A stretch of DNA of 64,000 nucleotides from Desulfatiglandales bacterium (GTDB lineage Bacteria; Desulfobacterota; DSM-4660; Desulfatiglandales; Desulfatiglandaceae). Position numbers and translations under genes: made by a program. Location: assembly GCA_963662465.1 (NCBI GenBank), contig OY759599.1:224001-288000 (forward strand), given 5' to 3'. The notes beneath the pieces were generated by a model. The model worked only from the letters and a program-made list of their open reading frames with translations. It did not search any database and was not told the origin of the DNA. Positions 51,130 to 64,000 of the stretch are shown one piece after another. Numbering within the stretch: position 1 is the stretch's first letter; each line of letters begins with the position of its first letter.

Positions 51130-52213
51130 AACTGATAACCACATTCGAAATTTGATGGATGAAGTTCCACCCTCCGAAGCATATCCGATGTTCCATTATG
51201 TATTTGATGGAATAAAGGGATCAAAACAACTAAATACATTTCGTTCCTACGGCAACAATTTGTTGTGCGCACTGGATGGAACTTATTCCTTTTCTTCCGA
51301 AAAGATCCATTGCGAAAATTGTAGCAGCAAAGAACATAAAAACGGAACCATAACCTATTTTTACTCGGCAATCACACCCGTACTTGTCGCTCCAGGTCAG
51401 AAAAAGGTTATTTCATTGCCCCCCGAGTTTGTAACGCCTCAGGATGGATACCAAAAACAGGACTGTGAAAATGTTGCCGCGAAACGTTGGATAAAGCAGT
51501 ATGCACCATTATACAAAGACCTTGGTATTATCATTTTGGGCGACGATCTGTATTGTCGGCAACCCATATGCACGTTGATATTGGATAAGGGCCTCCACTT
51601 CATCCTCGTTTGCAAACCTAACTCGCACAAAATACTCTATGAATGGGTCGAAGAGCTCCAAGCAATGAATGCCGTCGAAACGGTCGTGGAAAAGATACGG
51701 AGAGGTAATACTCATCATATACATACATACCGTTTCGTAAATAAGGTCCCTTTGCGTGATGGCGAAAAGGCTTTGGAAGTTAACTGGTGTGAACTGACCA
51801 TTACTTCCGCTGCGGGTAAGCGCTTATATAAAAACGCGTTTACAACCGATTTCACCATATCAAAAGACAATGTGAAACAAATCGTCGCCGATGGTCGGGC
51901 GCGCTGGAAAATTGAAAATGAAAACAATAACGTATTAAAAACAAAATGTTATCATCTTGAACACAATTTTGGCCATGGCAAAAAACATCTATCAAATTTC
52001 TTATTGACGTTAAATCTTCTGGCTTTTCTCTTCCATACTGCGTTGGAAATGTTTGACGACGTTTATAGGCGGATTCGAGAAGATTTGCCAACTCGAAAAA
52101 CCTTCTTCCAAGACATTCGAGCTTTAACTCGGTATGTCTGCTTCAATAGCTGGGAGGCAATGCTGACGTTCATGGCCCGGGGCCTCGATCTAGATCTCCC
52201 AGATACAAGCTAA
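51130..52213 (+). pseudogene. ISNCY-like DDE transposase lacking its N-terminus
   Basis: TDNHIRNLMDEV, ALDGT, KQDCE, LGDDLY, GRARWKIENE, HLEHNFGHG; no proper start upstream. Confidence 0.85.
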
Positions 52214-52446: not shown

Positions 52447-53571
52447 TCAGCGCCTGTACGGATAACCGCCCCTTATGCCTTTTTTTGAAAACACAATTTG
52501 CCACAACTGATTCCTCCTTGACCTGAAACTGCCGGCGCATGAAAGAAGATAATAGGTCCACATACGATAAAACCGCTCATCATATGCATTTTTGAGTTTG
52601 ACCCAATTTTTTGTGAAATTGTGGTACCAGGCCATCAACGTTCTGTCATAGCATTGCCCGAAGCTATGCCAATCCTCGAGTACAAACAACCCTTCCGTTG
52701 CCGAGGTGATCTGTTTTGTGGACGGCAACATTGAATTCGGGAAAATATATTTATTAATCCAAGGGTCTGTTGAATTCGTGGAAGTGTTCCCCGCTATCGT
52801 GTGCAACAAAAAGAGGCCATTCTCTTTTAGACATCGATGGACAACTTCCATGAACGTCCTGTAGTTTTTTAATCCCACATGTTCAAACATGCCGATGGAA
52901 ACAATGCGATCGAATTTTTCCGTTAACGCCCTATAATCTTTCAGTTCGATTTTTATCTCAAGCCCTTGGCAGAAATTATTTACAAATTTCACCTGCTCCC
53001 GGGACACTGTTATGCCATGTACCCTAGCGCCATATTTTGCGGCTGCATATTTTGCAAAACCACCCCAGCCACACCCGATATCCAAAACCTTCATGCCCGA
53101 CTTTAATCCGATTTTTTGACAAATTAAGTCCAATTTAGCTTCCTGCGCTGTATCGAGCGTTTCGGCGTTTTTCCAGTAAGCACAAGAATAATTTAGCCCT
53201 TTATCCAGCATAATAGAAAAAAGATGATTACCGATGTCGTAATGCCGTTTGCCGACGATGTAGGCACTTGATCTGTTCTGAGTATTTATTACCTTTGCCT
53301 TCAGCATTATCCACAGCGATATTGCGGCATTTGTCTTTGATTTCTTGTCTAAGCGATTCTCCATGATTTTTTCAAAGAATTGATCAATGGCTTCACAATC
53401 CCACCAGCCATCCATGTAGCTTTCCCCCAGAGCAAGGGAACCTCCTGATAAAACCCTTCCGTAAAAATCGGGGTTGTGTATCCGGATATCCCAGGGTCTA
53501 TCCCCATTAATCTGAACATCAGAAGGGTTAAGCAATTTTTGAACAATCTTTTTCATTTTTGCCGCCTCCAT
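52447..53571 (-). CDS. cfa: Cyclopropane fatty acyl phospholipid synthase
   Basis: LGESYMDGWW, HYDIGN, YSCAYW, VLDIGCGWGG, SIGMFEHVG, KYIFPNSMLP, RMWTYYLLSC. Confidence 0.95.
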   Translation of the reverse strand: MEAAKMKKIVQKLLNPSDVQINGDRPWDIRIHNPDFYGRVLSGGSLALGESYMDGWWDCEAIDQFFEKIMENRLDKKSKTNAAISLWIMLKAKVINTQNRSSAYIVGKRHYDIGNHLFSIMLDKGLNYSCAYWKNAETLDTAQEAKLDLICQKIGLKSGMKVLDIGCGWGGFAKYAAAKYGARVHGITVSREQVKFVNNFCQGLEIKIELKDYRALTEKFDRIVSIGMFEHVGLKNYRTFMEVVHRCLKENGLFLLHTIAGNTSTNSTDPWINKYIFPNSMLPSTKQITSATEGLFVLEDWHSFGQCYDRTLMAWYHNFTKNWVKLKNAYDERFYRMWTYYLLSCAGSFRSRRNQLWQIVFSKKGIRGGYPYRR

Positions 53572-54145: not shown

Positions 54146-56045
54146 GATGCACTCGTAAAAAGTCAGGAAGCATTTAGGCCAAAATTATGATCATATACTC
54201 ATAATTATGAAGAAATATACCTGAACTTTTTTCAGCCGAGTTCGAAATAAGAAAAAATGCTCTTTGAAAACAAGAATAGCGTGAATTTGAGCAGAAGACC
54301 CTCCTCCCTGAGGTGTTTTAGCACTGTTCATAACCGTTTTGAGCGGCAGTTGCCCTGAAGAGGTTGATTGCTGTGGCTTTTAAGGTGGCACAAAACCGTA
54401 CTGCTTTAAGGCCCCTCACTCTAAGATGCTTAACTCCGGTTTTTCTGTCAAATTCAGACATGGCCGCTTCGACACCTGCACGCCACCGATAACGATCTTT
54501 GAATTCATCTGTTTGTTCATAAGATCTTCGTTTTGCCAATCGCATCTCTTTGGCCTTATAACGAAGGTAGTGGTTCTTTTTCCCTGTCTTTACCGGGCAC
54601 GTTTCCTGAAAAGGACACGCCATGCAGTGTTGAGAATCAAATATGGCGGTGTGCCTGGTTCCAGCTTTGTTTGTTTTGGTTTGGACCGGCGCATGACCTT
54701 CAGGACAGGCAAGAACAACGCCGTTTTCAGATGATTCAAAATCCGAAAGGTTCAGGTGATCTTCTTTCTTTATGGAACCCATAGTGGGGGCTAAAACCTG
54801 TACTCCCAGTGCCTCAGCTTTTTGACAATTCTCATCGCTGCCATAAAGGCTGTCCGCCAGGATTTCTTCGGGAGAGACATTGCGTTGTTTAGCAGATTCG
54901 ATAGCTGGTATCAGAGCATTTGCATCGCTTTCGTGAGAAGGCTCCACTTCGATGTGGGTAATCAAATTCAAACTGGTATCACTTTCACTATCTTTACTGT
55001 AGGTCTCCATGACCTGAACTTGATACCCTTGGCCTTTGTGACCACTATAGGTTGCATCGGGATCTGAAGGGTTTTGAAGAGAATTTGAGGGGATTTCCTT
55101 GGGTTTTTTCACTTCAACTTGTTTGCCGTCATCGGACACATTGCATTGTTCGTTCAAAACACGCTCAAGCAATTTGAAGCTATGCATGCTTTTGATTGCC
55201 GGGTGAAATTTGAATTGTCCAACCAAATCAAATAGATCTGAGCTTACAGAAGCAAGTGTTTTGGATGATTCTGAAGGTTTTACCATGGAAAAACATTGCA
55301 GAGATTTTTCAGAAAGATATTTGTCCCGGATGCTTGCATCTATTGCATCAAACAGCTCTTTGTGATTCCGCTTTAAATTGACCAGGAACTTATGGACAGT
55401 GGCGACAAAAATGCCAATTCTACCCAAACGCCGCATATTCGATTTGATATGAACAGAGTCAATCCTCTGGTTTTCGATATTGGAATTGAAAAGCAGTGCC
55501 GGTTTATTTGTAAAACGATCAAACACCATTGTATCCAGAGACTTTTCAGTAACGATCTGACGCATATTCCAGAAGGTTTTTGCACACATATACTTAGAGG
55601 CATCTGATTCATCAGTAATATTAAGAGCATAGTGCCACTGAATATTAAAAGCCAGCTGGTTTACGGTTTCATCGTCGGTGACGTCATGCGCTTGCTGGAG
55701 GAGTAGAACTCCAAGTACAGTGTAGAGTTCTTTTGTGGGGCGGCCAAAATCTTCTTTAAAAGAAGACGCTATTTCGTCAACGGGCAGTTCGCGGAGGAGT
55801 TCTTTTTGAAATAGCCCGGCCCACGATTGATCCAGCAAATCTCGACGTCTCGGGCTCAAAAAATGCCATGGGTCGAAAAGAACACCCTGATTTTGGTCTT
55901 TGATTCGAATCATACCGTGCACCTGAAGTTTGGTTGATGATATGACTCCTTACGTATCAAAATGTAAGGCAAAATGGAAGCGAAAAAGAGCTATATGCTA
56001 AAATATTTCAACAACTTAAATGAATTTGCTTTTTACGAGACCATC
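54146..56045 (-). mobile_element. Insertion sequence (IS1182/IS5-like)
   Basis: Inverted ends GATGCACTCGTAAAAAG (54146) and CTTTTTACGAGACCATC (ending 56045) enclose one transposase. Confidence 0.85.
54318..55913 (-). CDS. DDE transposase, apparently intact
   Basis: GRPT, QRIDSVH, SLQNPSDPDATY, LADSLYG, CxxC cluster, YRWRAGVEA. Confidence 0.9.
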   Translation of the reverse strand: MIRIKDQNQGVLFDPWHFLSPRRRDLLDQSWAGLFQKELLRELPVDEIASSFKEDFGRPTKELYTVLGVLLLQQAHDVTDDETVNQLAFNIQWHYALNITDESDASKYMCAKTFWNMRQIVTEKSLDTMVFDRFTNKPALLFNSNIENQRIDSVHIKSNMRRLGRIGIFVATVHKFLVNLKRNHKELFDAIDASIRDKYLSEKSLQCFSMVKPSESSKTLASVSSDLFDLVGQFKFHPAIKSMHSFKLLERVLNEQCNVSDDGKQVEVKKPKEIPSNSLQNPSDPDATYSGHKGQGYQVQVMETYSKDSESDTSLNLITHIEVEPSHESDANALIPAIESAKQRNVSPEEILADSLYGSDENCQKAEALGVQVLAPTMGSIKKEDHLNLSDFESSENGVVLACPEGHAPVQTKTNKAGTRHTAIFDSQHCMACPFQETCPVKTGKKNHYLRYKAKEMRLAKRRSYEQTDEFKDRYRWRAGVEAAMSEFDRKTGVKHLRVRGLKAVRFCATLKATAINLFRATAAQNGYEQC

Positions 56046-56722
56046 AATAATTGATCCATGATAACCTCCATTCCTCCTCATTTGCGTTTTTCCGTGGCTG
56101 CCATTGATTCGAAAAGCGATCCTTGTAATGGGCCTCCTAAAACGCGGATGTCTTTTAACCTCTTATACAAAAGTCAAGACACTTTCGTCACAAAAAAAAT
56201 GATACTTTGGGTTTGCAATAAAAAACCAAAGTATAAGAACCCTCAGAACATTCTGAGAGCTCATCTCTCAGAATGTTGGGATCTATTTGATAATAATAAA
56301 CTTTTCAGCTGCGATGAAAATTGCAAATATCTTTGGCTAGACTTACATCCTTGCGGAAAGAGTATTTCCTCGGATTTGAAAATACTCAGACTCCCCCCTG
56401 CTGCCTCACTTTCTATGCCAAAATCCAAGATATCGTAAGCTCAAAAAACCTGTGATATCAAAAAATCAGATGGCTTGAACGAACGTTGTTATCATGCTAT
56501 CTCTCAGGGCCGGTCGTTCTGGGTATATATTGAGTTATGTTGCGGCCTGCCATAACCCCCTGAAAAACCCTTAATTTTCGCCCTCGCCACGAGATATCGA
56601 GATTAAGCAATAAAAGCAATAGTTTATTTCATATTTTGAGCAACCCGTCTCTCCAAGAGACAACATAATATTTTTACCTTATTCGCAGCTCTCCGTAAAG
56701 GGCTATTGTTTGCATGCCCCCG

Positions 56723-57742
56723 CTATAGACTGTCCAACCAGGCCATCAAATCCCCCTCATTTTCATAATGGAGTAATTCATCTATCTTGGAATCGTCCGT
56801 CAGGGCCGATTGCATGTGCCTCATGAACTGCCTTTGAATGTGGCGCCGTCGATCCAGGTCCAAATGCAGATAGATCGAAGTGGACTGGATGTTGTCATGC
56901 CCCAGATGATTCTTGATATCCGTGATGGGGTCACCGTTGTGGAGCATATCAACTGCTCGCGAGTGCCGGAATGAATGAACGGGATTGATATGTTTCAGAC
57001 GTTTTGGAGGGAGGGCCTTTTGGAGATATTTCCTGCAAATCCGGTAGATTCCATGGCGAGTGAATGACTCTCCCTTTTGATTGATAAAGAGCCGGTTTTC
57101 AAACATGGGCTTTGGGGATATCCGGTATTGTCGAATGTACAACTGAAGCAGGTCACAGGTTTTTGACTCAAGCTTTATGAGTCGAAACCGATTGCCCTTT
57201 CCCAGAATACTGAGGGTTTTCCGGTTGGGGTTAAAATAGTCGATATTCAACTCTGCAATTTCACTGGCCCTGGCTCCGGAATCGTAGAGCAGATGGAGCA
57301 CGGTGTAATCCCTGAACCCCTCTTTTCGTTTAAAATCAACCGCCTGAAACACCCGAAGTATTTCATCCTGGTAAAGAAATCCGATAAGACTCTTCTGCTC
57401 CCGTTTCTGGGGAATATTGAGGATAGCGGTTGCGGCATCCTGTTGATCCGGATGCATAAAGCGAATCATTTTGGCAAAGGATTTGAGTGCCGCAAGACGA
57501 TGATTCCGGGTTTTGGCCCCATTTTTCCTGTCACTTTGAAGATTTTCAAGGAACGAGACGAGAAGTTCCGTTTTAATATGTTCCACACGAAGCGATTTGA
57601 CCTTGATGTTGTAAAACGATGCCGCAAAGGGAAGAAAAATCCTGAAAGCATCCCGATAGGCCTTTATGGTCTGGTAACTGAGCCCCCTGATGGAAGTCAG
57701 GTATTGATCAAAGAACTGATGCACCAGGGGTGAAAGTTTCAT
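56723..57742 (-). CDS. Tyrosine recombinase, third gene of the outer RIT-like trio
   Basis: YDSGARASE, GKG, HSFRH, LGHDNIQSTSIY; ATGA overlap with the upstream gene stop. Confidence 0.93.
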   Translation of the reverse strand: MKLSPLVHQFFDQYLTSIRGLSYQTIKAYRDAFRIFLPFAASFYNIKVKSLRVEHIKTELLVSFLENLQSDRKNGAKTRNHRLAALKSFAKMIRFMHPDQQDAATAILNIPQKREQKSLIGFLYQDEILRVFQAVDFKRKEGFRDYTVLHLLYDSGARASEIAELNIDYFNPNRKTLSILGKGNRFRLIKLESKTCDLLQLYIRQYRISPKPMFENRLFINQKGESFTRHGIYRICRKYLQKALPPKRLKHINPVHSFRHSRAVDMLHNGDPITDIKNHLGHDNIQSTSIYLHLDLDRRRHIQRQFMRHMQSALTDDSKIDELLHYENEGDLMAWLDSL

Positions 57743-57931
57743 TTGTTTACTCTCTGCCAAAGACAAAAATCAACGAGATCTTTGCGATTCATGGCATCTG
57801 AAACCCGGAGATAAACACTGGTGCAAATGTAATCCGTGTGACCCAGATAGGCCGCCAGTATGGGTAAAGCGTTTTGGGCGGATTCACCTGATTTCCGGAT
57901 TCTGTTGAGGGTGTTCACGGCAAAAGAATGG
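57739..57931 (-). pseudogene. 3' part of the interrupted middle recombinase of the outer trio
   Basis: RHSFAVNTL..LPILAAYLGH..TSVYL continues exactly from ..TPHSLR at 61421. Confidence 0.93.
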
Positions 57932-57963
57932 CGCAGCAAATCCAAACGTTTGGATTTGCTGCG
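57932..57963. repeat. Perfect 32-bp palindrome at the left junction of the inner RIT
   Basis: CGCAGCAAATCCAAAC|GTTTGGATTTGCTGCG. Confidence 0.97.
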
Positions 57964-58097
57964 TTATCCAAACCTAAATAAAATCCAAACCTTTTCTTAA
58001 ATAACCTGATATTTAAGTATTTTTATCGGAAAAGGTTTGGATTTTATTGCATAACGTATGACCTTTTTATCAAACAAATGAACAGGAGGTCATACGA

Positions 58098-59336
58098 ATG
58101 AATGTACAAAATCTGCGGGATAATTATCCCAAACTCATTTCCTACATGGAAACCAACGGTTACTCAAAAACTTACGTTGACAGTTTTAAAAGGGAGATTA
58201 AAAAAACTCTGGCGTCTGAGGATTCAGAGGAATGGTCATGTTATAAAGATGTATATTTGGGATACACCAAAAAATCATATTCTCCTAACACTCTTCGCGA
58301 TAAACGGACTGTCATTGGAGCCATTGAGCAGTTTGATGTTCATGACAGATACCCGAATGGAAGGTGCAGGCATCAACTCTTCGAAAGGGGTTCTTATCCC
58401 TTGTTGTCACCGGAATTCAAATCCGTCATCGATCTTTACCATGAAGTTGAAAAGAAACGTGGCAAGAAAAAATCTGCTACCGTTTATACCGAATCCCATA
58501 ATGCATCCACATTTTTCTTATCCCTTCAGCAAAAAGGAATTAACGGCCTGGGAAAGACTACAGAAGAAGCCGTGCTTTCAATATTTATGTCCCCGGATGA
58601 AACCCTGCTCAAGAGCTGTTCTTACAAAAAAAACATTGCTGCGGTATTGAAGGCGTGTATCCCTTATCATCCAGAAACATGTCCTCAAATTTTAGCCTTC
58701 CTTCCCGCTTTAAGGGAAACTCGAAAAAATATTCAGTACCTTACATCGAAGGAAATCCAGAAAGTTAAGGGCGTACTGGCTGATGGTGAAAATCTTCTTA
58801 CGCTCCGTGACAAAGCAATTGGAATGCTTGCACTTTACACAGGCGTGCGTGGCTGTGATATTGCAGGATTGAAACTTGACGATATTGACTGGAACAGGGA
58901 TTTTATTGATATCAAACAGCAGAAAACAGCAATCCCTCTTGAACTTCCTTTAACAGCAGTTGTCGGAAATGCCATTTATGACTATCTGACGTCAGAGCGC
59001 CCACGCACAGAAAGCAGATATATTTTTGTTTCCCAGCTTAAACCATATGAACAACTGAAAAACAAAAGCATTGGCAACGTGGCAGCTCTGATCATGAAAG
59101 CAGCAGGTATCCGGCAGTTAAAAGGCGATCGGAAAGGATTTCATATCTTCCGCCATCACTTTGCCACAGAACTTTTGGGGAACGGAGTTCCTCAGCCTGT
59201 TATCAGCAGGACACTTGGTCACACTTCACCAGATTCTCTTGAATCATACCTAAGAGCAGATTTCCCGCATTTGAAGGAATGTGCCATCAGCATAGAAGGT
59301 GTTCCTGTACCAAAGGAGGTGTTTTACCATGAATAA
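58098..59336 (+). CDS. Tyrosine recombinase A of the inner RIT
   Basis: YTGVRGCD, QQKT, HIFRH, LGH..SLESY; SD AGGAGG. Confidence 0.93.
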   Translation: MNVQNLRDNYPKLISYMETNGYSKTYVDSFKREIKKTLASEDSEEWSCYKDVYLGYTKKSYSPNTLRDKRTVIGAIEQFDVHDRYPNGRCRHQLFERGSYPLLSPEFKSVIDLYHEVEKKRGKKKSATVYTESHNASTFFLSLQQKGINGLGKTTEEAVLSIFMSPDETLLKSCSYKKNIAAVLKACIPYHPETCPQILAFLPALRETRKNIQYLTSKEIQKVKGVLADGENLLTLRDKAIGMLALYTGVRGCDIAGLKLDDIDWNRDFIDIKQQKTAIPLELPLTAVVGNAIYDYLTSERPRTESRYIFVSQLKPYEQLKNKSIGNVAALIMKAAGIRQLKGDRKGFHIFRHHFATELLGNGVPQPVISRTLGHTSPDSLESYLRADFPHLKECAISIEGVPVPKEVFYHE

Positions 59337-60303
59337 ATTCACTTCTTTTCTTGCGCCGCTCATGCAGGCATATGTTTTCTATCAAAAAGCATCCGGACGT
59401 TGGAGTGAAGCTTCTTCTTATGGACCAAACCTCATCCTGTTTGACCGATACTGCAAGAAGCAACATCCGGAAGCTGCACTTCTATCTCAGGAAATGGTGA
59501 ATGGATGGTGCCATCAGCGCGACACAGAATCCAACAATTCGTGCAGATCAAGAATCAATGTTGTTGTAAGTTTTATACGATACTTGAGAAAGCGCGGAAA
59601 AACAGATGTCATGGAGCCTGAAATTCCAAGGAAAGAGCGATGCACATATATTCCCCATTCTTTTACAGGTGTTGAGCTGGAAAATTTTTTCCATGCTTGT
59701 GATAGCCTGCCTTCAGTATCCCACACTCCCGAACAGCGATCACGGAAAATAACTATTCCTGTGTTCTTCCGTTTTCTTTACAGTAGTGGAATACGAACTT
59801 ATGAGGCAAGAATGCTGAGGGTTAAGGACGTCGACTTGTGCAATGGGATTATGAATATCCGTTATTCCAAGGGGAGTGCTCAGCACTACGTAGTGCTACA
59901 TGACTCCATGAATAAACTTTTAAAAATATATGACGAAGCTATACGGAAGCAGTACCCTCACAGAACTTATTTTTTCCCTGCAAAAGGTAACACTTTCCAT
60001 AAAAGGAAATGGGTACAGACAAATTTTCGGGAATTGTGGGATAAATATAATAGCTCTCATGCTACTGCATATGAGCTCAGGCACCATTATGCCATAAAAA
60101 ACATCAACCGCTGGACAGATGAAGGCTTTGGGTTTGATGCGAAACTGCTCTATCTCAGCAAAAGCATGGGACACAGCACACTGGAAAGCACAAAATATTA
60201 TTATTCCCTTGTTCCCGGAATGGCTGACATCTTGGAAGAAAAAACAGGAATGGATTTCGAAAGCATTGTGCCGGAGGTGGATTATGAAGAAAGCGACGAA
60301 TGA
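59329..60303 (+). CDS. Tyrosine recombinase B of the inner RIT
   Basis: YSSGIRTYE, SKG, YELRH, MGHSTLESTKYY; SD AGGAGG, overlaps gene A. Confidence 0.93.
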   Translation: MNKFTSFLAPLMQAYVFYQKASGRWSEASSYGPNLILFDRYCKKQHPEAALLSQEMVNGWCHQRDTESNNSCRSRINVVVSFIRYLRKRGKTDVMEPEIPRKERCTYIPHSFTGVELENFFHACDSLPSVSHTPEQRSRKITIPVFFRFLYSSGIRTYEARMLRVKDVDLCNGIMNIRYSKGSAQHYVVLHDSMNKLLKIYDEAIRKQYPHRTYFFPAKGNTFHKRKWVQTNFRELWDKYNSSHATAYELRHHYAIKNINRWTDEGFGFDAKLLYLSKSMGHSTLESTKYYYSLVPGMADILEEKTGMDFESIVPEVDYEESDE

Positions 60304-61333
60304 GTCTGTTGTAATCGCACGCCATATCAATGCTTTTTTGAATGAATATGTTCCTTCCCAGAAAAGTCACAGCAGCCACACATTGAAATCCTATCAGTAT
60401 GCTCTGGCTTTATATATCGGTTTTTTGGAGGCCAAAAAAGGAATAAGTACAGAAAGCTTGTGTGGTGGATGTTTCAGAAGAATAATAATCGAGGAATGGC
60501 TGCAATGGCTGATAGAAGTGCGTTGTTGCAGGCCGGAAACCTGTAACAACCGGTTAGCATCCTTAAGAGCATTCCTAAAATACATGGCCAGTAGGGAAGT
60601 CCGCCTGCTGTACCTTTCCGAGGAGGCAACAAGAATTCCACGGAAAAAGGAAATACGCAAAAGAGTAAAAGGGATGAGCAAAAAAGCAGTACGGGTATTG
60701 TTATCGGTTCCGGATTTATCCAGAAAAACAGGGCGAAGGGATCTATCACTTATGATTGTCATATACAGCACTGCCGCCAGAATAGATGAAATACTGTCTT
60801 TAAAAACAGAACAACTTCATTTGGACGTGGAAAAGCCGAATATCACCATCATTGGAAAGGGAAGCAAAATAAGAACCCTGTATCTTCTACCTAAGGCTGT
60901 TGCACATTTAAAAAAATATCTGGGAGAATTTCATGGTGATACTCCAGATCCAGAAGCTTATGTTTTTTATTCAAGGAACACCGGATCACATGGGAAAATG
61001 AGTCAGACTGCAGTAAACAAGCAACTGAAAAAACATGCCAGAGCCGCCCATGAAATATGTGATGAGGTACCACGAGATCTTCATGCGCATCAACTGAGAC
61101 ATGCAAAGGCCTCCCACTGGCTGGAAGATGGCATGAATATCGTACAAATTTCATTTCTTTTAGGGCATGAGCAGTTACAGACAACGATGATATATATGGA
61201 CATTACCCTAGAGCAGGAATTGAAAGCCCTTGCAACACTTGAAGATGAAAACGACAAGAAGGTATCAAAGAAATGGAAAAATCAAAAAGATGGTCTGGCG
61301 GATTTCTGTGGCGTTAAGTCAATGAAGAAGTAA
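60284..61333 (+). CDS. Tyrosine recombinase C of the inner RIT
   Basis: YSTAARIDE, GKG, HQLRH, LGHEQLQTTMIY; SD GGAGG, overlaps gene B. Confidence 0.93.
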   Translation: MKKATNESVVIARHINAFLNEYVPSQKSHSSHTLKSYQYALALYIGFLEAKKGISTESLCGGCFRRIIIEEWLQWLIEVRCCRPETCNNRLASLRAFLKYMASREVRLLYLSEEATRIPRKKEIRKRVKGMSKKAVRVLLSVPDLSRKTGRRDLSLMIVIYSTAARIDEILSLKTEQLHLDVEKPNITIIGKGSKIRTLYLLPKAVAHLKKYLGEFHGDTPDPEAYVFYSRNTGSHGKMSQTAVNKQLKKHARAAHEICDEVPRDLHAHQLRHAKASHWLEDGMNIVQISFLLGHEQLQTTMIYMDITLEQELKALATLEDENDKKVSKKWKNQKDGLADFCGVKSMKK

Positions 61334-61420
61334 AAAATAAAATCCAAACTTTTTTGTATCGAATTCCTTAAATATCAGACATCTTTAAAAAAGGTTTGGA
61401 TTTTATTTAGGTTTGGATAA

Positions 61421-62205
61421 CGCAGCGAATGAGGTGTGGGTCCGTTGAAGTTCACATTGCCCAAAACTTTTCTGGGTTGCTTTAAGCCAGTGTCACTTAC
61501 CGCCTTATGAAACGCGGCCCTGACAGTAGTGTCACTCAAACTCCGCTCTTTTCTGCCGGCAAACAGAAAGGGATTCTTATCGTTTGGGCGAAGACTTTGG
61601 CGGACAGAGAGATAGTTTTCGATCTCTGCCACAACTTTTTTGGGAATCGGAATGATTCTGTCTTTGCCGAACTTGGTCCTTTCAATATAGAGGGTGGCAT
61701 CATCCCGGCGGTAGTTGCACCGCAAAAGTTTGATGGGTTCAGAGATCCTTGTTCCGCACCGGGCCATGACCAGCACCACCATATAAATAGCCAGGTCAGT
61801 CAAAAAACATCCGTTGGTCGTTCGAATGTTTTTGGAGACCGACTTCAACAGCAGGTCGATTTGATCGGGAGAGAAAACAAAGGGTACAACGACGTTTTTT
61901 TTAAGCCTCGGAACATCCTGTAAGGGATTATGGTCCACATAACCACGACCGGCAAGAAAATGGAAGAAGCCCCGAATCGAGGAAAAAATAGCGTTGATAC
62001 TCCGCGTTTCCTGGGTGAGTGCTGCTCTCATTTCAAGGAAAAAATCAGGCGTAAAAGAATGCCGGTCAGCTTCTGTTTTCCGAAGATAATCATCAAAAGT
62101 CAGAAGATGTGAGAGAACAGACCCCTTTTTATAGCCGAGACTTTTACGACGATACCGAAGGTAATCCTCCATCTCAGAGGCAAGAAAGCTTTTAAAGGGT
62201 CTCAT
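61421..62205 (-). pseudogene. 5' part of the interrupted middle recombinase of the outer trio
   Basis: FKSFLA..Y, CGTRISE, TKFGKDR, ends at TPHSLR; rejoined gene would be 325 aa. Confidence 0.93.
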
Positions 62206-63139
62206 TGAGCAAAACCTTTCTCATCAGTTCGATGTGGATGTGGAGATACCGCTGAGTGCACCGAATGTTCCGATGCCCCAGCATTTCCTTGATTTCATAA
62301 ATGGAACGACCCACAATCAGTAAACCCTGTGCATAGCTGTGTCTGAGCCAATAGGCACTCGAAGACAGTCCGGCTTCTCTCATGGCGTTTGAGATATGAA
62401 AACCAACCAAATTGGGCCTCATTGGCCTATAGGGCTTGTCGCAGGTCAAAAATAGTTCTCTGCAATCGCTTTCAGACCGGGCCTTGTGGACATAAGCCGC
62501 AATGGCTTTGAGGGTCTTATGGGGAATGGGCAGCACAACGGGATTGCCATTTTTCCTGCTGTTTATGGTGATCTCTCCTTCTTGAAACGATATGTCATCC
62601 AGGGTGATGCGGCTGATCTCATCGGGTCTCAAGCCCAACGAGTAGGCCAGAACCGTCATGGCATAGGTTCGAATCTGTGTTGGCGTCTCCAGGCTGAGGC
62701 TTTCGAAGAGTGTCTTGATTTCATTCGGCCGGAGAAATTTTGGCGGTCTTAACTGGTTGAACACCCGGGGACTCACCACCCCATAAGACAGGTCTTTTCT
62801 GGTAATCTTTTCGTCAAACAGATAGCTTAAAAATCTTCTCAGCTTACCTCGATAGATATTTCGGGTCTGGGTGGAAAAGGATTTGAGAAAATCGGCCTGA
62901 AAAGCATCAATATGTTCGAGCTTCAAACCGGAAAGTGTAATTTGGTGCTGTTCAAGATAGAGGTGAAATGAAGCCAGGACCCGTCTTGTGGCTTTGGCAT
63001 TCTTACTGGAAATGACCTGACGTTCACGGATACAAAAGAGATGCTTCTCGTAAATATCGGGGAGGCGAATCTGGTGGTTTTGAACCGGGTGGGGCGCCAT
63101 CCGGTCTTTTCCATACCGTCTGATATCATCTGTTCCCAT
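62192..63139 (-). CDS. Tyrosine recombinase, first gene of the outer trio
   Basis: LGLRPDE, RKNG, YWLRHS, LGHRNIRCTQRY; overlaps the next gene. Confidence 0.9.
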   Translation of the reverse strand: MGTDDIRRYGKDRMAPHPVQNHQIRLPDIYEKHLFCIRERQVISSKNAKATRRVLASFHLYLEQHQITLSGLKLEHIDAFQADFLKSFSTQTRNIYRGKLRRFLSYLFDEKITRKDLSYGVVSPRVFNQLRPPKFLRPNEIKTLFESLSLETPTQIRTYAMTVLAYSLGLRPDEISRITLDDISFQEGEITINSRKNGNPVVLPIPHKTLKAIAAYVHKARSESDCRELFLTCDKPYRPMRPNLVGFHISNAMREAGLSSSAYWLRHSYAQGLLIVGRSIYEIKEMLGHRNIRCTQRYLHIHIELMRKVLLNETL

Positions 63140-63140
63140 T

Positions 63141-63527
63141 TCAGATCTCCCTAATAGATTGCTGGATAAGGTTCTCTATTTTCAACCTTCCATGGTTTTG
63201 CCGGTGCTTTTTGGGGGCCGATTCTTTGGGTAAATCGAGTACCTGGAAAAGGCTTCCGTCAAATGCAATCAAATCCGTTTTTATCAGAGAGTCCCGGGCT
63301 TCAATGTATTCATCCACGGTGATTTTCAGAAACTTACAGATCCTGTCATAGGAGTAATAGGAAAGGCCGTTTCGATCGGAAGCCAAAACAAGAAAGAAGT
63401 ATAAAAGGATTTCCTGAGGCCTTAAAGCGTCCAGAAAACCATCCCGAAGGAACTTGTGAGGAATAAAACTGAAGCCGCCATTAATGCGTCTGACCCGATC
63501 CGGGTCCAGTATCTTTTTCTTGATCAT
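63141..63527 (-). CDS. Mobile-element-associated small helix-turn-helix-like protein
   Basis: GGFSFIPHKFL, LLYFFLVL, DRNGLSYYS, ARDSLIKTDLIAF; SD AAAGGAG; stop is 1 bp before the recombinase start. Confidence 0.7.
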   Translation of the reverse strand: MIKKKILDPDRVRRINGGFSFIPHKFLRDGFLDALRPQEILLYFFLVLASDRNGLSYYSYDRICKFLKITVDEYIEARDSLIKTDLIAFDGSLFQVLDLPKESAPKKHRQNHGRLKIENLIQQSIREI

Positions 63528-63661
63528 GATTGACTCCTTTCCGGGTCTGATTTGGGGAAATCAAGATGCATGAGTTCATCAAGCTGGCTGAACAACCATC
63601 GACAAACCGCTTTTTGGTATCTTTCATGCTGATTCCTCCCCGTGGAGCCAATCTACGACCT

Positions 63662-64000
63662 TTAAAGGGGTGGGTCAGTCCCCGTATGGTGTTGGAAGCG
63701 GTTATTCCTGATTTTTTCTGATCCAGGGTGGGTACAAAAGCCCAAAGGAGGCGGCAGAATCTGTAGAAATGGGGCTGCATATTGCCGGAGTTCTGGAAGA
63801 ACATATGACACGCAAAGCGTCTGGCGAAAGGACGACAAGGTCGGCTCACAGGCTGAAAACATAGAAGGCATAAGTTCGATCAACATCTTTAATGCTGATC
63901 GGATGGGAAGGATTCTCCGTCTAACCCAGCGAAGGGCACCCGGGAGAAAAATATCAACGCGAATCCTTTCAACTGCCTTCTCTTGAGATGGGGCTTTTTC
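63662..64000 (-). CDS. 3' part of a mobile-element hypothetical protein (runs off the window)
   Basis: Open frame from the window edge: ..RIRVDIFLPGALRWVRRR..LPPPLGF..GTDPPL. Confidence 0.6.
   Translation of the reverse strand, partial: EKAPSQEKAVERIRVDIFLPGALRWVRRRILPIRSALKMLIELMPSMFSACEPTLSSFRQTLCVSYVLPELRQYAAPFLQILPPPLGFCTHPGSEKIRNNRFQHHTGTDPPL

Follow-up and report, generated by a model that had tools for sequence, protein, structure and literature searches.

A recombinase-in-trio lineage situated at the HxxRH active-site codons of other tyrosine recombinase genes, and a proposed circle with two entry sites

The 64,000-nucleotide stretch analysed here (the window) comprises positions 224,001 to 288,000 of contig OY759599.1 of a Desulfatiglandales bacterium (assembly GCA_963662465.1), a genome consisting of a single 8.16-Mb contig (G000:C1:224001-288000). 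Within it, a plus-strand trio of tyrosine recombinase genes sits inside the middle gene of a minus-strand trio, at the codons of the catalytic HxxRH box. The best overall explanation is probably that the inner trio belongs to a RIT (recombinase-in-trio) element lineage that integrates at a DNA site encoded by these codons, through a circular form with two entry sites. Taken alone, the targeting of catalytic HxxRH codons is very likely; the two-site circle, as the best account of the mechanism, is moderately likely. Across many hosts, members of the lineage mostly occupy the same target position, in both orientations, with hexamers at their ends that are not duplicated.

The inner element is 3,483 bp long (57938-61420), carries ritABC, and has a GC content of 41%, against 46-47% in the outer genes and 49.5% in the genome. 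It breaks the outer middle gene after CAT TCG CTG CG, with C CAT resuming beyond the insert, such that the break falls at H-S-L-R/H (a slash marks the point of insertion throughout). Joining the halves anywhere within their shared hexamer gives one 325-aa frame through HSLRHS, and an intact 324-aa paralogue elsewhere in the genome aligns end to end with both halves (54% identity over residues 1-261, 65% over residues 262-316). The sequence and this alignment confirm the split and the rejoined reading frame described in the original prediction. PF00589 is matched by all five whole trio genes and, in the split gene, by the 5' half. In the reading direction of the target gene, the order is GCTGCG, a 32-bp inverted repeat (IR), ritC-ritB-ritA in antisense, the second 32-bp IR, an inverted hexamer, a 20-bp palindrome and GCTGCG, with all three hexamers identical at this insertion. 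The terminal IRs are perfect (57964-57995 and 61389-61420); the 38-bp ends reported earlier contain a genuine terminal repeat, but are this 32-bp repeat plus the hexamer. The features of the insertion are as follows.

61421..62205, minus strand: outer gene 2 (RitB-like), 5' part, ending with H-S-L and the first two bases of the R codon (PF00589; paralogue 54%)
61421..61426, minus strand: upstream crossover hexamer GCTGCG, attL-like junction (from the sequence)
61389..61420, no strand: terminal IR, ritC side, 32 bp, with two ATCCAAAC cores (repeat search)
61335..61408, no strand: sub-terminal inverted pair of core repeats, ritC side (repeat I4)
60284..61333, plus strand: inner ritC, 349 aa, box HQLRH (PF00589)
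59329..60303, plus strand: inner ritB, 324 aa, box YELRH, with Tyr replacing the first His (PF00589)
58098..59336, plus strand: inner ritA, 412 aa, box HIFRH (PF00589; catalytic domain at residues 214-389)
57977..58048, no strand: sub-terminal inverted pair of core repeats, ritA side (repeat I3)
57964..57995, no strand: terminal IR, ritA side, 32 bp (repeat search)
57958..57963, plus strand: internal (third, inverted) hexamer GCTGCG (from the sequence), putatively the spacer of a spare entry site
57938..57957, no strand: 20-bp palindrome AAATCCAAACGTTTGGATTT, two cores back to back, on the 3' side of the target (same module at other loci)
57932..57937, minus strand: downstream crossover hexamer GCTGCG, attR-like junction (from the sequence)
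57739..57931, minus strand: outer gene 2, 3' part, with the last base of the R codon, the His codon and the LGH..Y motif, and an ATGA overlap with gene 3 (sequence; paralogue)

The inner ritA and ritB overlap by 8 bp, and ritB and ritC by about 20 bp, taking the first ATG as the start. Tyrosine replaces the first histidine of the box in all 39 family RitB proteins scored. No RitA, RitB or RitC profile was among the Pfam or NCBIfam matches of the inner proteins, those of NCBIfam being sub-threshold Xer-type only. Contigs about 91% identical to the inner element over window positions 59553-60083 occur at lower depth in two runs (X1, X2), and represent further variants of it in the same sample.

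The target position is evident from other genomes. One genome per species was searched with the element end alone (the palindrome, any six bases and the start of the IR), hence the survey was blind to the target. It yielded 98 stretches (loci L043-L138); after removal of duplicates (L092, L120) there were 98 ends in 94 loci, 96 of these ends with flank, L049 and L073 being dropped before the counts for having none. Flanks were translated from the second base of the downstream hexamer, and 87 were long enough to submit. Among these, 53 matched PF00589 from profile position 132-134, which is the HxxR box, many falling below the whole-protein cut-off, being fragments; 22 more matched a profile built from the 53 (E under 1e-4). 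The HxxR/H box of a tyrosine recombinase is thereby abutted at 75 of the 96 ends, and in 66 of 87 distinct flanks. The recombinase hosts vary, including integrases linked to insertion sequences (ISs), those of the phage or integrative and conjugative element (ICE) type, and those of the integron type. RitB-type longer spacing is found in 27 of the 66 distinct recombinase targets, hence nesting of one RIT within another is common. Every identified target, recombinase or not, is a mobile-element gene. These counts bear out the original proposal that the inner element targets the catalytic motif of other tyrosine recombinases, and the check proposed with it, which translated the flanks of element ends, did not reveal insertion at background GCTGCG sites.

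A quick tree of element RitB and RitC was made of 35 rows: the window's element and 34 loci in which both proteins were present. The window element falls in a clade of 15 rows (SH-aLRT 99) that has recombinase targets only and spans eight phylum labels, and other target types are placed on separate branches. The same nested architecture is present in complete chromosomes and plasmids. There are five copies in one genome (G101) and three in another (G102), and five internally deleted miniatures of 450-619 bp were found, three of them in the same HxxR box. On two Priestia plasmids, a relative (RitA 45%) lies inside an ArdC-family gene at HELT/H. The inner RitA was not found at E 1e-40 in the 100 related genomes searched, nor the palindrome in any of the 400 other phylum genomes searched; a loose 16-bp version of the palindrome had 33 matches in viral contigs, of which two were element ends and the rest apparently chance. 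Two further groups were noted in the survey. Elements at L018, L035, L047 and L124 lie in Toprim-domain (primase-like) genes at LR/N or LR/S, two of them on viral contigs. Six loci (L063, L064, L075, L081, L094, L114) have variant palindrome ends, TT..AA, and their target integrase family has the box LRRH, with the downstream His one codon further out.

The genome containing the window carries two full copies and one partial copy of the inner element. The second copy (C1:7045550-7051367) is 99.9-100% identical to that in the window, apart from an IS, and again sits at H-S-L-R/H; the gene it interrupts is the middle one of a trio that shares 40-58% aa identity with the window's outer trio. Its hexamers are TCTACG upstream, GCTGCG internally and CTTACG downstream. 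The third, truncated copy (C1:2.87 Mb) occupies the same site within a sister of the window's outer element. Here 12 of 313 bases differ, as opposed to 7 of 1397 for that outer element (Fisher p 1.7e-5), and this greater divergence of the inner sequence suggests a separate insertion or conversion. Hence all three palindrome-bearing copies are at the HxxRH motif of RitB-like genes, in two different trios, in a genome with 2,512 GCTGCG sites and 518 H-x-hydrophobic-R-H coding patterns, which argues that the choice of site is not chance. The motif is unoccupied in an intact paralogous trio (C1:3.49 Mb) and in four copies of another trio. CTTACG, the downstream hexamer of the second copy, also occurs in the intact 3.49-Mb paralogue and in one other integrase box; this sharing is a lead only, so few hexamers being possible. 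Other insertions were observed at these loci. The ritB of the second copy is split by a 2,325-bp insertion with a 682-aa open reading frame (C1:7047256-7049580), of which the genome has three copies. A 1,910-bp reverse-transcriptase element (C1:2868022-2869931; 13 copies), which we take to be group II intron-like from its YADD motif, breaks the 5' region of the truncated third copy. The four copies of the unoccupied third trio (C1:1.58, 2.49, 4.39 and 7.14 Mb) have a RitB box QDFRH with a high matrix score, and one holds a 5-kb insertion between genes 1 and 2.

The bases flanking the hexamer point to what is recognised. Upstream flanks read C-A-Y at -5 to -3, with A at -4 in 21/22 and a pyrimidine at -3 in 22/22. 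Downstream flanks of recombinase targets read N-C-A-Y at +1 to +4, with C in 66/66 and A in 62/66. The element's own joint, GGATWW-[6]-TTATCC, puts AT at the same positions as the A-Y pairs of the target. The degenerate DNA target would be C-A-Y-N-N-[6 bp]-N-C-A-Y plus flanking preferences, in which two His codons four residues apart would set A-Y at -4/-3 and +3/+4 around the hexamer, mimicking the element core. As side branches use ArdC genes at HELT/H, a gene at HELE/H, and IstB, Toprim and PD-(D/E)XK genes, it is probably the DNA dyad encoded by His-x-x-x-His codons that is recognised, not integrases as such. The HExxH motifs of metalloproteases would build the same dyad, fitting the ArdC and HELEH targets.

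The hexamers and orientations bear on the mechanism. Both ends are available for 23 elements. Their three hexamers (upstream, internal and downstream) all differ from one another in eight elements and are all equal in three; upstream equals downstream in seven, internal equals downstream in four, and upstream equals internal in one. At a Priestia locus (L009), intact alleles with 99.6-99.9% identical flanks carry the upstream hexamer, not the downstream one, and the downstream and internal hexamers are those of the site of a sister copy on another plasmid. Hence the hexamer is a crossover region, not a duplication, and the downstream one can be imported. Nor is GCTGCG a fixed target: the hexamer has often been brought along from a previous site, and at the second copy both outer hexamers are different. 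The genes are oriented opposite to the target in 31 ends and in the same direction in 19, with the palindrome always on the target's 3' side in either orientation. In G101, three copies in one orientation have the upstream/internal/downstream hexamers TCTTAG/TACCTG/TCTTAG, and one copy in the same target in the other orientation has TCTTAG/TCTTAG/TACCTG. This swap fits entry through a second site, not inversion in place, because inversion leaves the downstream hexamer unchanged. The internal hexamers fit the codons of a hydrophobic residue and Arg in 70/87 cases, as expected of a record of earlier targets. Five double-palindrome forms were found (L074, L086, L091, L103, L136/L137), in three of which the two ends share a hexamer, internal at one and downstream at the other, as expected of a parent and daughter of opposite orientation, joined in the cell or by the assembler.

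We therefore propose the following scheme for the lineage with ATCCAAAC cores, to which the inner RIT belongs. It would integrate by site-specific tyrosine recombination at a degenerate site, landing in other mobile DNA (phage, ICE or IS-linked integrases, and other RITs) and breaking the recombinase gene there. Recombination between the outer junctions would generate a circle with the joint IR-[6]-palindrome-[6]-IR, which would constitute two equivalent, complete entry sites, back to back. Entry via either site would set the orientation of the genes, with the palindrome always ending on the target's 3' side, and entry via the second would turn the genes round, with the internal and downstream hexamers changing places. 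The target's own hexamer would stay upstream, and the downstream one would arrive with the element, the unused site keeping an older hexamer as a record of past targets.

Several points weigh against this reading. Firstly, regarding the circle, the seven of 23 elements in which upstream and downstream hexamers agree and the internal one differs need re-entry into a like site or repair, as plain carry-over does not account for them; the rule that the upstream hexamer is native comes from a single intact allele, and the two-site swap from a single genome. Secondly, the survey recovers only ends with the palindrome, and many of its loci are contigs of metagenome-assembled genomes from short reads. 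Thirdly, 21 of the 96 ends fell outside the recombinase-box class; about seven of these begin xRH or xSH and then lose frame, and the others include IstB (2), Toprim (2), PD-(D/E)XK (2) and the HELE/H gene. Fourthly, the IstB and PD-(D/E)XK sites lack the A-Y pair at +3/+4, meaning the dyad rule is not universal, and the genome of the window contains 21,275 bare CAY-N9-CAY dyads, far too many unless flanks add specificity. Fifthly, one supporting result is partly circular: a 28-bp target matrix, trained on sites from other genomes, ranks recombinase boxes first in the 8.2-Mb genome (14/14 sites with a score of at least 20, and 17 of the 20 best, by eye), but the training sites were mostly from recombinases. 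Several of these top-scoring sites are unoccupied, and the window's own target site scores 18.8.

Finally, no circle, empty site, excision or inversion was observed in the available contigs. A scan of metagenome contigs for the circle joint (IR-[6]-palindrome-[6]-IR) returned one match, a contig that is perfectly palindromic along its entire 7,242 bases and has the ritA end at either side; it was treated as an assembly artefact. The Logan contigs of four runs over window positions 56300-63700 contained no empty-site or inversion joint, which is uninformative either way, as such contigs drop rare forms. Excision would restore the frame exactly in the window, and usually with the same residue classes elsewhere. 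The reversible disabling of the host element that had been envisaged is possible in principle on this basis, but no empty site or excision was seen, and in G101 an 8,371-bp composite with the split gene occurs three times, at 100% identity, at different places. The latter means that stopping of the host element is not established. No intact copy of the outer trio was found in the G101 assembly.

Among alternatives, it is a serious possibility that the same target rule is combined with strand-biased copy-out and copy-in, as in strand-biased circularising integrative elements (SEs) and Tn554. The donor would then stay in place, the split gene would never be restored, and the palindrome module would be a by-product of replication or of a hairpin, not a second entry site. 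The combination of native upstream and imported downstream hexamers is the 'fingerprint/footprint' rule given for SEs in a passage of PMC10214605, genomes with multiple copies hold filled targets only (4/4 whole outer copies in G101, and three copies in G102), and hairpin intermediates are suggested for RITs in part of PMC5737581. However, SEs and Tn554 have one orientation rule and a single joint, leaving the orientation-linked swap of hexamers in G101 unexplained. Copy-out is compatible with the two-site circle, and the main difference is whether the donor is emptied.

It can be suggested more tentatively that the lineage is a specialist parasite of recombinase genes, with a two-entry circle, that also shuffles the N- and C-terminal parts of integrases in frame. 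Such shuffling is conceivable given that all copies share one catalytic codon as their position: recombination of copies with each other, or by way of the spare site, would fuse the N-terminal part of an integrase with a C-terminal part from a different one. Hints come from the five double-palindrome forms and from two further loci. L142, in the closed chromosome of G101 (G101:C1:1373500-1385000), is a palindrome-less copy between the facing 5' halves of two different ritB genes; that genome did not yield its reciprocal, which would be a palindrome standing alone between two 3' halves, or another type of RitC. L080 has a RitB-type 5' half and a 3' half of a phage/ICE-type integrase, a chimera that is either real or from assembly. 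If this were true, rival mobile elements would be disarmed and their recombinases reshuffled as well. The substitution of Tyr for His may protect the element's own RitB from attack by the element, given that this is invariant among the 39 proteins scored and that the 96 ends include no self-insertion.

It is improbable that the insert is a domesticated switch, flipping or excising in place to control the outer recombinase, as in regulated gene integrity. The identical hexamers in the window would allow exact excision, the geometry would permit inversion in place from the upstream junction to the internal site, and the three identical composites at different places in G101 could mean joint movement of insert and host. 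Yet the same element is found in unrelated hosts (different trios, and IS-linked, phage/ICE-type and integron-type integrases), its GC content is below that of the outer genes (41% versus 46-47%), and the flip in G101 altered the downstream hexamer, as in-place inversion would not. Near-random insertion followed by survival in dispensable mobile genes is very improbable: purifying selection would also confine identified targets to mobile-element genes, and XerC and XerD of G101 are intact, but selection cannot fix the same two codons in 66/87 distinct targets, nor the side of the palindrome. The chance that the nesting is an artefact of assembling repeated recombinase genes is almost negligible, for although suspect contigs do arise (the perfectly palindromic one, and the double-palindrome forms in draft assemblies), the inner and outer trio genes are only 22-28% alike, the genome is one contig, and the architecture recurs in complete replicons.

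The inner element is of a known kind. It has three adjacent, co-oriented tyrosine recombinase genes (412, 324 and 349 aa) with PF00589 in all, a 3,483-bp length, a 32-bp perfect IR and a 20-bp palindrome (versus about 3.5 kb and an IR of about 28-38 bp in RITs), and multiple near-identical copies at different sites. It resembles RITs too in that its genes overlap (8 bp, and about 20 bp from the first ATG of ritC), in terminal IRs of about 30 bp with an end palindrome, and in having identical copies inserted in the genes of other mobile elements. RIT targets in Ricker 2013 reportedly include genes for integrases and for DUF1738 (ArdC) proteins. Van Houdt 2012 (PMC3414803) and Janssen 2010 (PMC2864759) describe RITs of 3.5 kb, with inverted repeats including a palindrome, insertions in radC and transposase genes (IS66, Tn6049), and 'complex combinations' on pHG1; the former also gives reading-frame overlaps of 4-8 bp. 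A long RitA of about 410 aa has two core-binding domains (PMC8138268). RITs entered the literature in 2009-2013; Table 1 of PMC10214605 still lists RIT target specificity and movement as not tested, and a passage of the same paper states that no RIT's mobility has been reproduced experimentally. The inner element differs from described RITs in that its target is fixed to the HxxR/H box, its spare end hexamer suggests two entry sites, its core repeat is ATCCAAAC, and its RitB has Tyr for the first His. The literature searched contained no codon-level RIT target rule, role for the palindrome or two-site model, parts of which Ricker 2013, Mageeney 2020 or their supplements may describe. Hence it is the codon-level target rule and the design of the ends that are undescribed in that literature.

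Comparable behaviours are found in other systems. Tn916 likewise carries non-identical 6-bp crossover regions between sites; it differs in being conjugative, in using Int plus Xis, and in inserting at AT-rich sequence where the inner RIT uses a catalytic coding motif. The most conserved codons of a gene family serve as a landing site across hosts for inteins, group I introns, homing elements and 'regulated gene integrity' elements. The inner RIT is unlike inteins, introns and homing elements in that there is no RNA or protein splicing and the gene is broken, and it strikes other elements' mobility enzymes, those of its own kind included. Coupling sequences of the Tn916 type are mentioned in a passage of PMC10214605. 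That paper's sections on SEs and Tn554 describe movement by tyrosine recombinases, a 6-bp spacer, nesting in other mobile DNA, and a target hexamer left upstream with the donor's carried downstream, all of which resemble the inner element. They give the genes as IntA, Tfp, IntB and Srap in SEs and TnpA/B/C in Tn554, without the recombinase trio or palindromic double joint of the inner RIT. The four-gene arrangement of SEs and GInts, with Tfp/GinC and Srap/GinD, is absent, since only three recombinase genes fill the inner element. The 6-bp downstream donor footprint of SEs and Tn554 is present in the one case with an intact allele, and the 23 complete elements have mixed patterns.

This lineage now has a defined target site and end structure, with sharp predictions for the circle joint, the fate of hexamers and orientation. 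It is a clear case of conflict among mobile elements, in which one lands in the active-site codons of others' recombinases, a single clade of it covering no fewer than eight phylum labels. A tool could be made of a recombinase system that accepts mismatched 6-bp crossovers and recognises a short, degenerate site. For annotation, the lineage explains a recurring class of 'split integrase' pseudogenes.

The outer element was less typical, its remaining features being as follows.

63141..63527, minus strand: helix-turn-helix (HTH) gene (PF13730), 128 aa, within the outer element; one also adjoins the intact paralogous trio
62192..63139, minus strand: outer trio gene 1, in the RitA position; at 315 aa its product is short for a RitA (PF00589, E 1.7e-25)
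56723..57742, minus strand: outer trio gene 3 (RitC-like), 339 aa (PF00589)
56529..56668, no strand: probable right end of the outer element, with inverted TTATGTTG repeats (56535, 56661) and the hexamer CTCAAT

CTCAAT also precedes the far outer end (G000:C1:288794-288824), beyond the window, such that TTATGTTG repeats with this hexamer bound the element on both sides. It extends from 56535 to about 64818 (G000:C1:288818), past the end of the window, and would be about 4.8 kb without the insert. The span given in the original prediction was too small, and the ritA-side palindrome and inverted hexamer went unmentioned there. Like RITs, the outer element has three adjacent, overlapping tyrosine recombinase genes (315, 325 and 339 aa, with overlaps of 14 bp and ATGA), of which the trio at C1:3.49 Mb is an intact paralogue. 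Unlike them, its RitA-position protein is short (315 aa here and 296 aa in the paralogue, versus about 410 aa), its ends are short TTATGTTG repeats where RITs of 3.5 kb and three genes have long perfect IRs, and it has three extra genes (the HTH gene, a 203-aa gene without a Pfam match, and a SEC-C/TPR gene). Hence the description of a RIT within a RIT holds for the inner element, the outer one being RIT-like but no textbook case.

An IS21-like element of 4.3 kb, with about 26 copies in the genome (e.g. C1:174501-178850), has genes of 460, 239, 294, 139 and 138 aa, the 139-aa HTH gene being 60% identical to that of the outer trio element; hence the two element types share a small HTH gene. Beside the outer end, window positions 56407-56534 are a repeat of roughly 130 bp with more than 10 diverged copies in the genome, and a fuller copy at C1:2.868 Mb, which begins with TTATGTTG, may be the end of another RIT-like element. 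Elsewhere in the window, DDE transposase genes at 51152-52213 (DDE_Tnp_1) and 54318-55922 (DUF772 and DDE_Tnp_1_6) flank a cyclopropane fatty-acid synthase-like gene (52447-53571).

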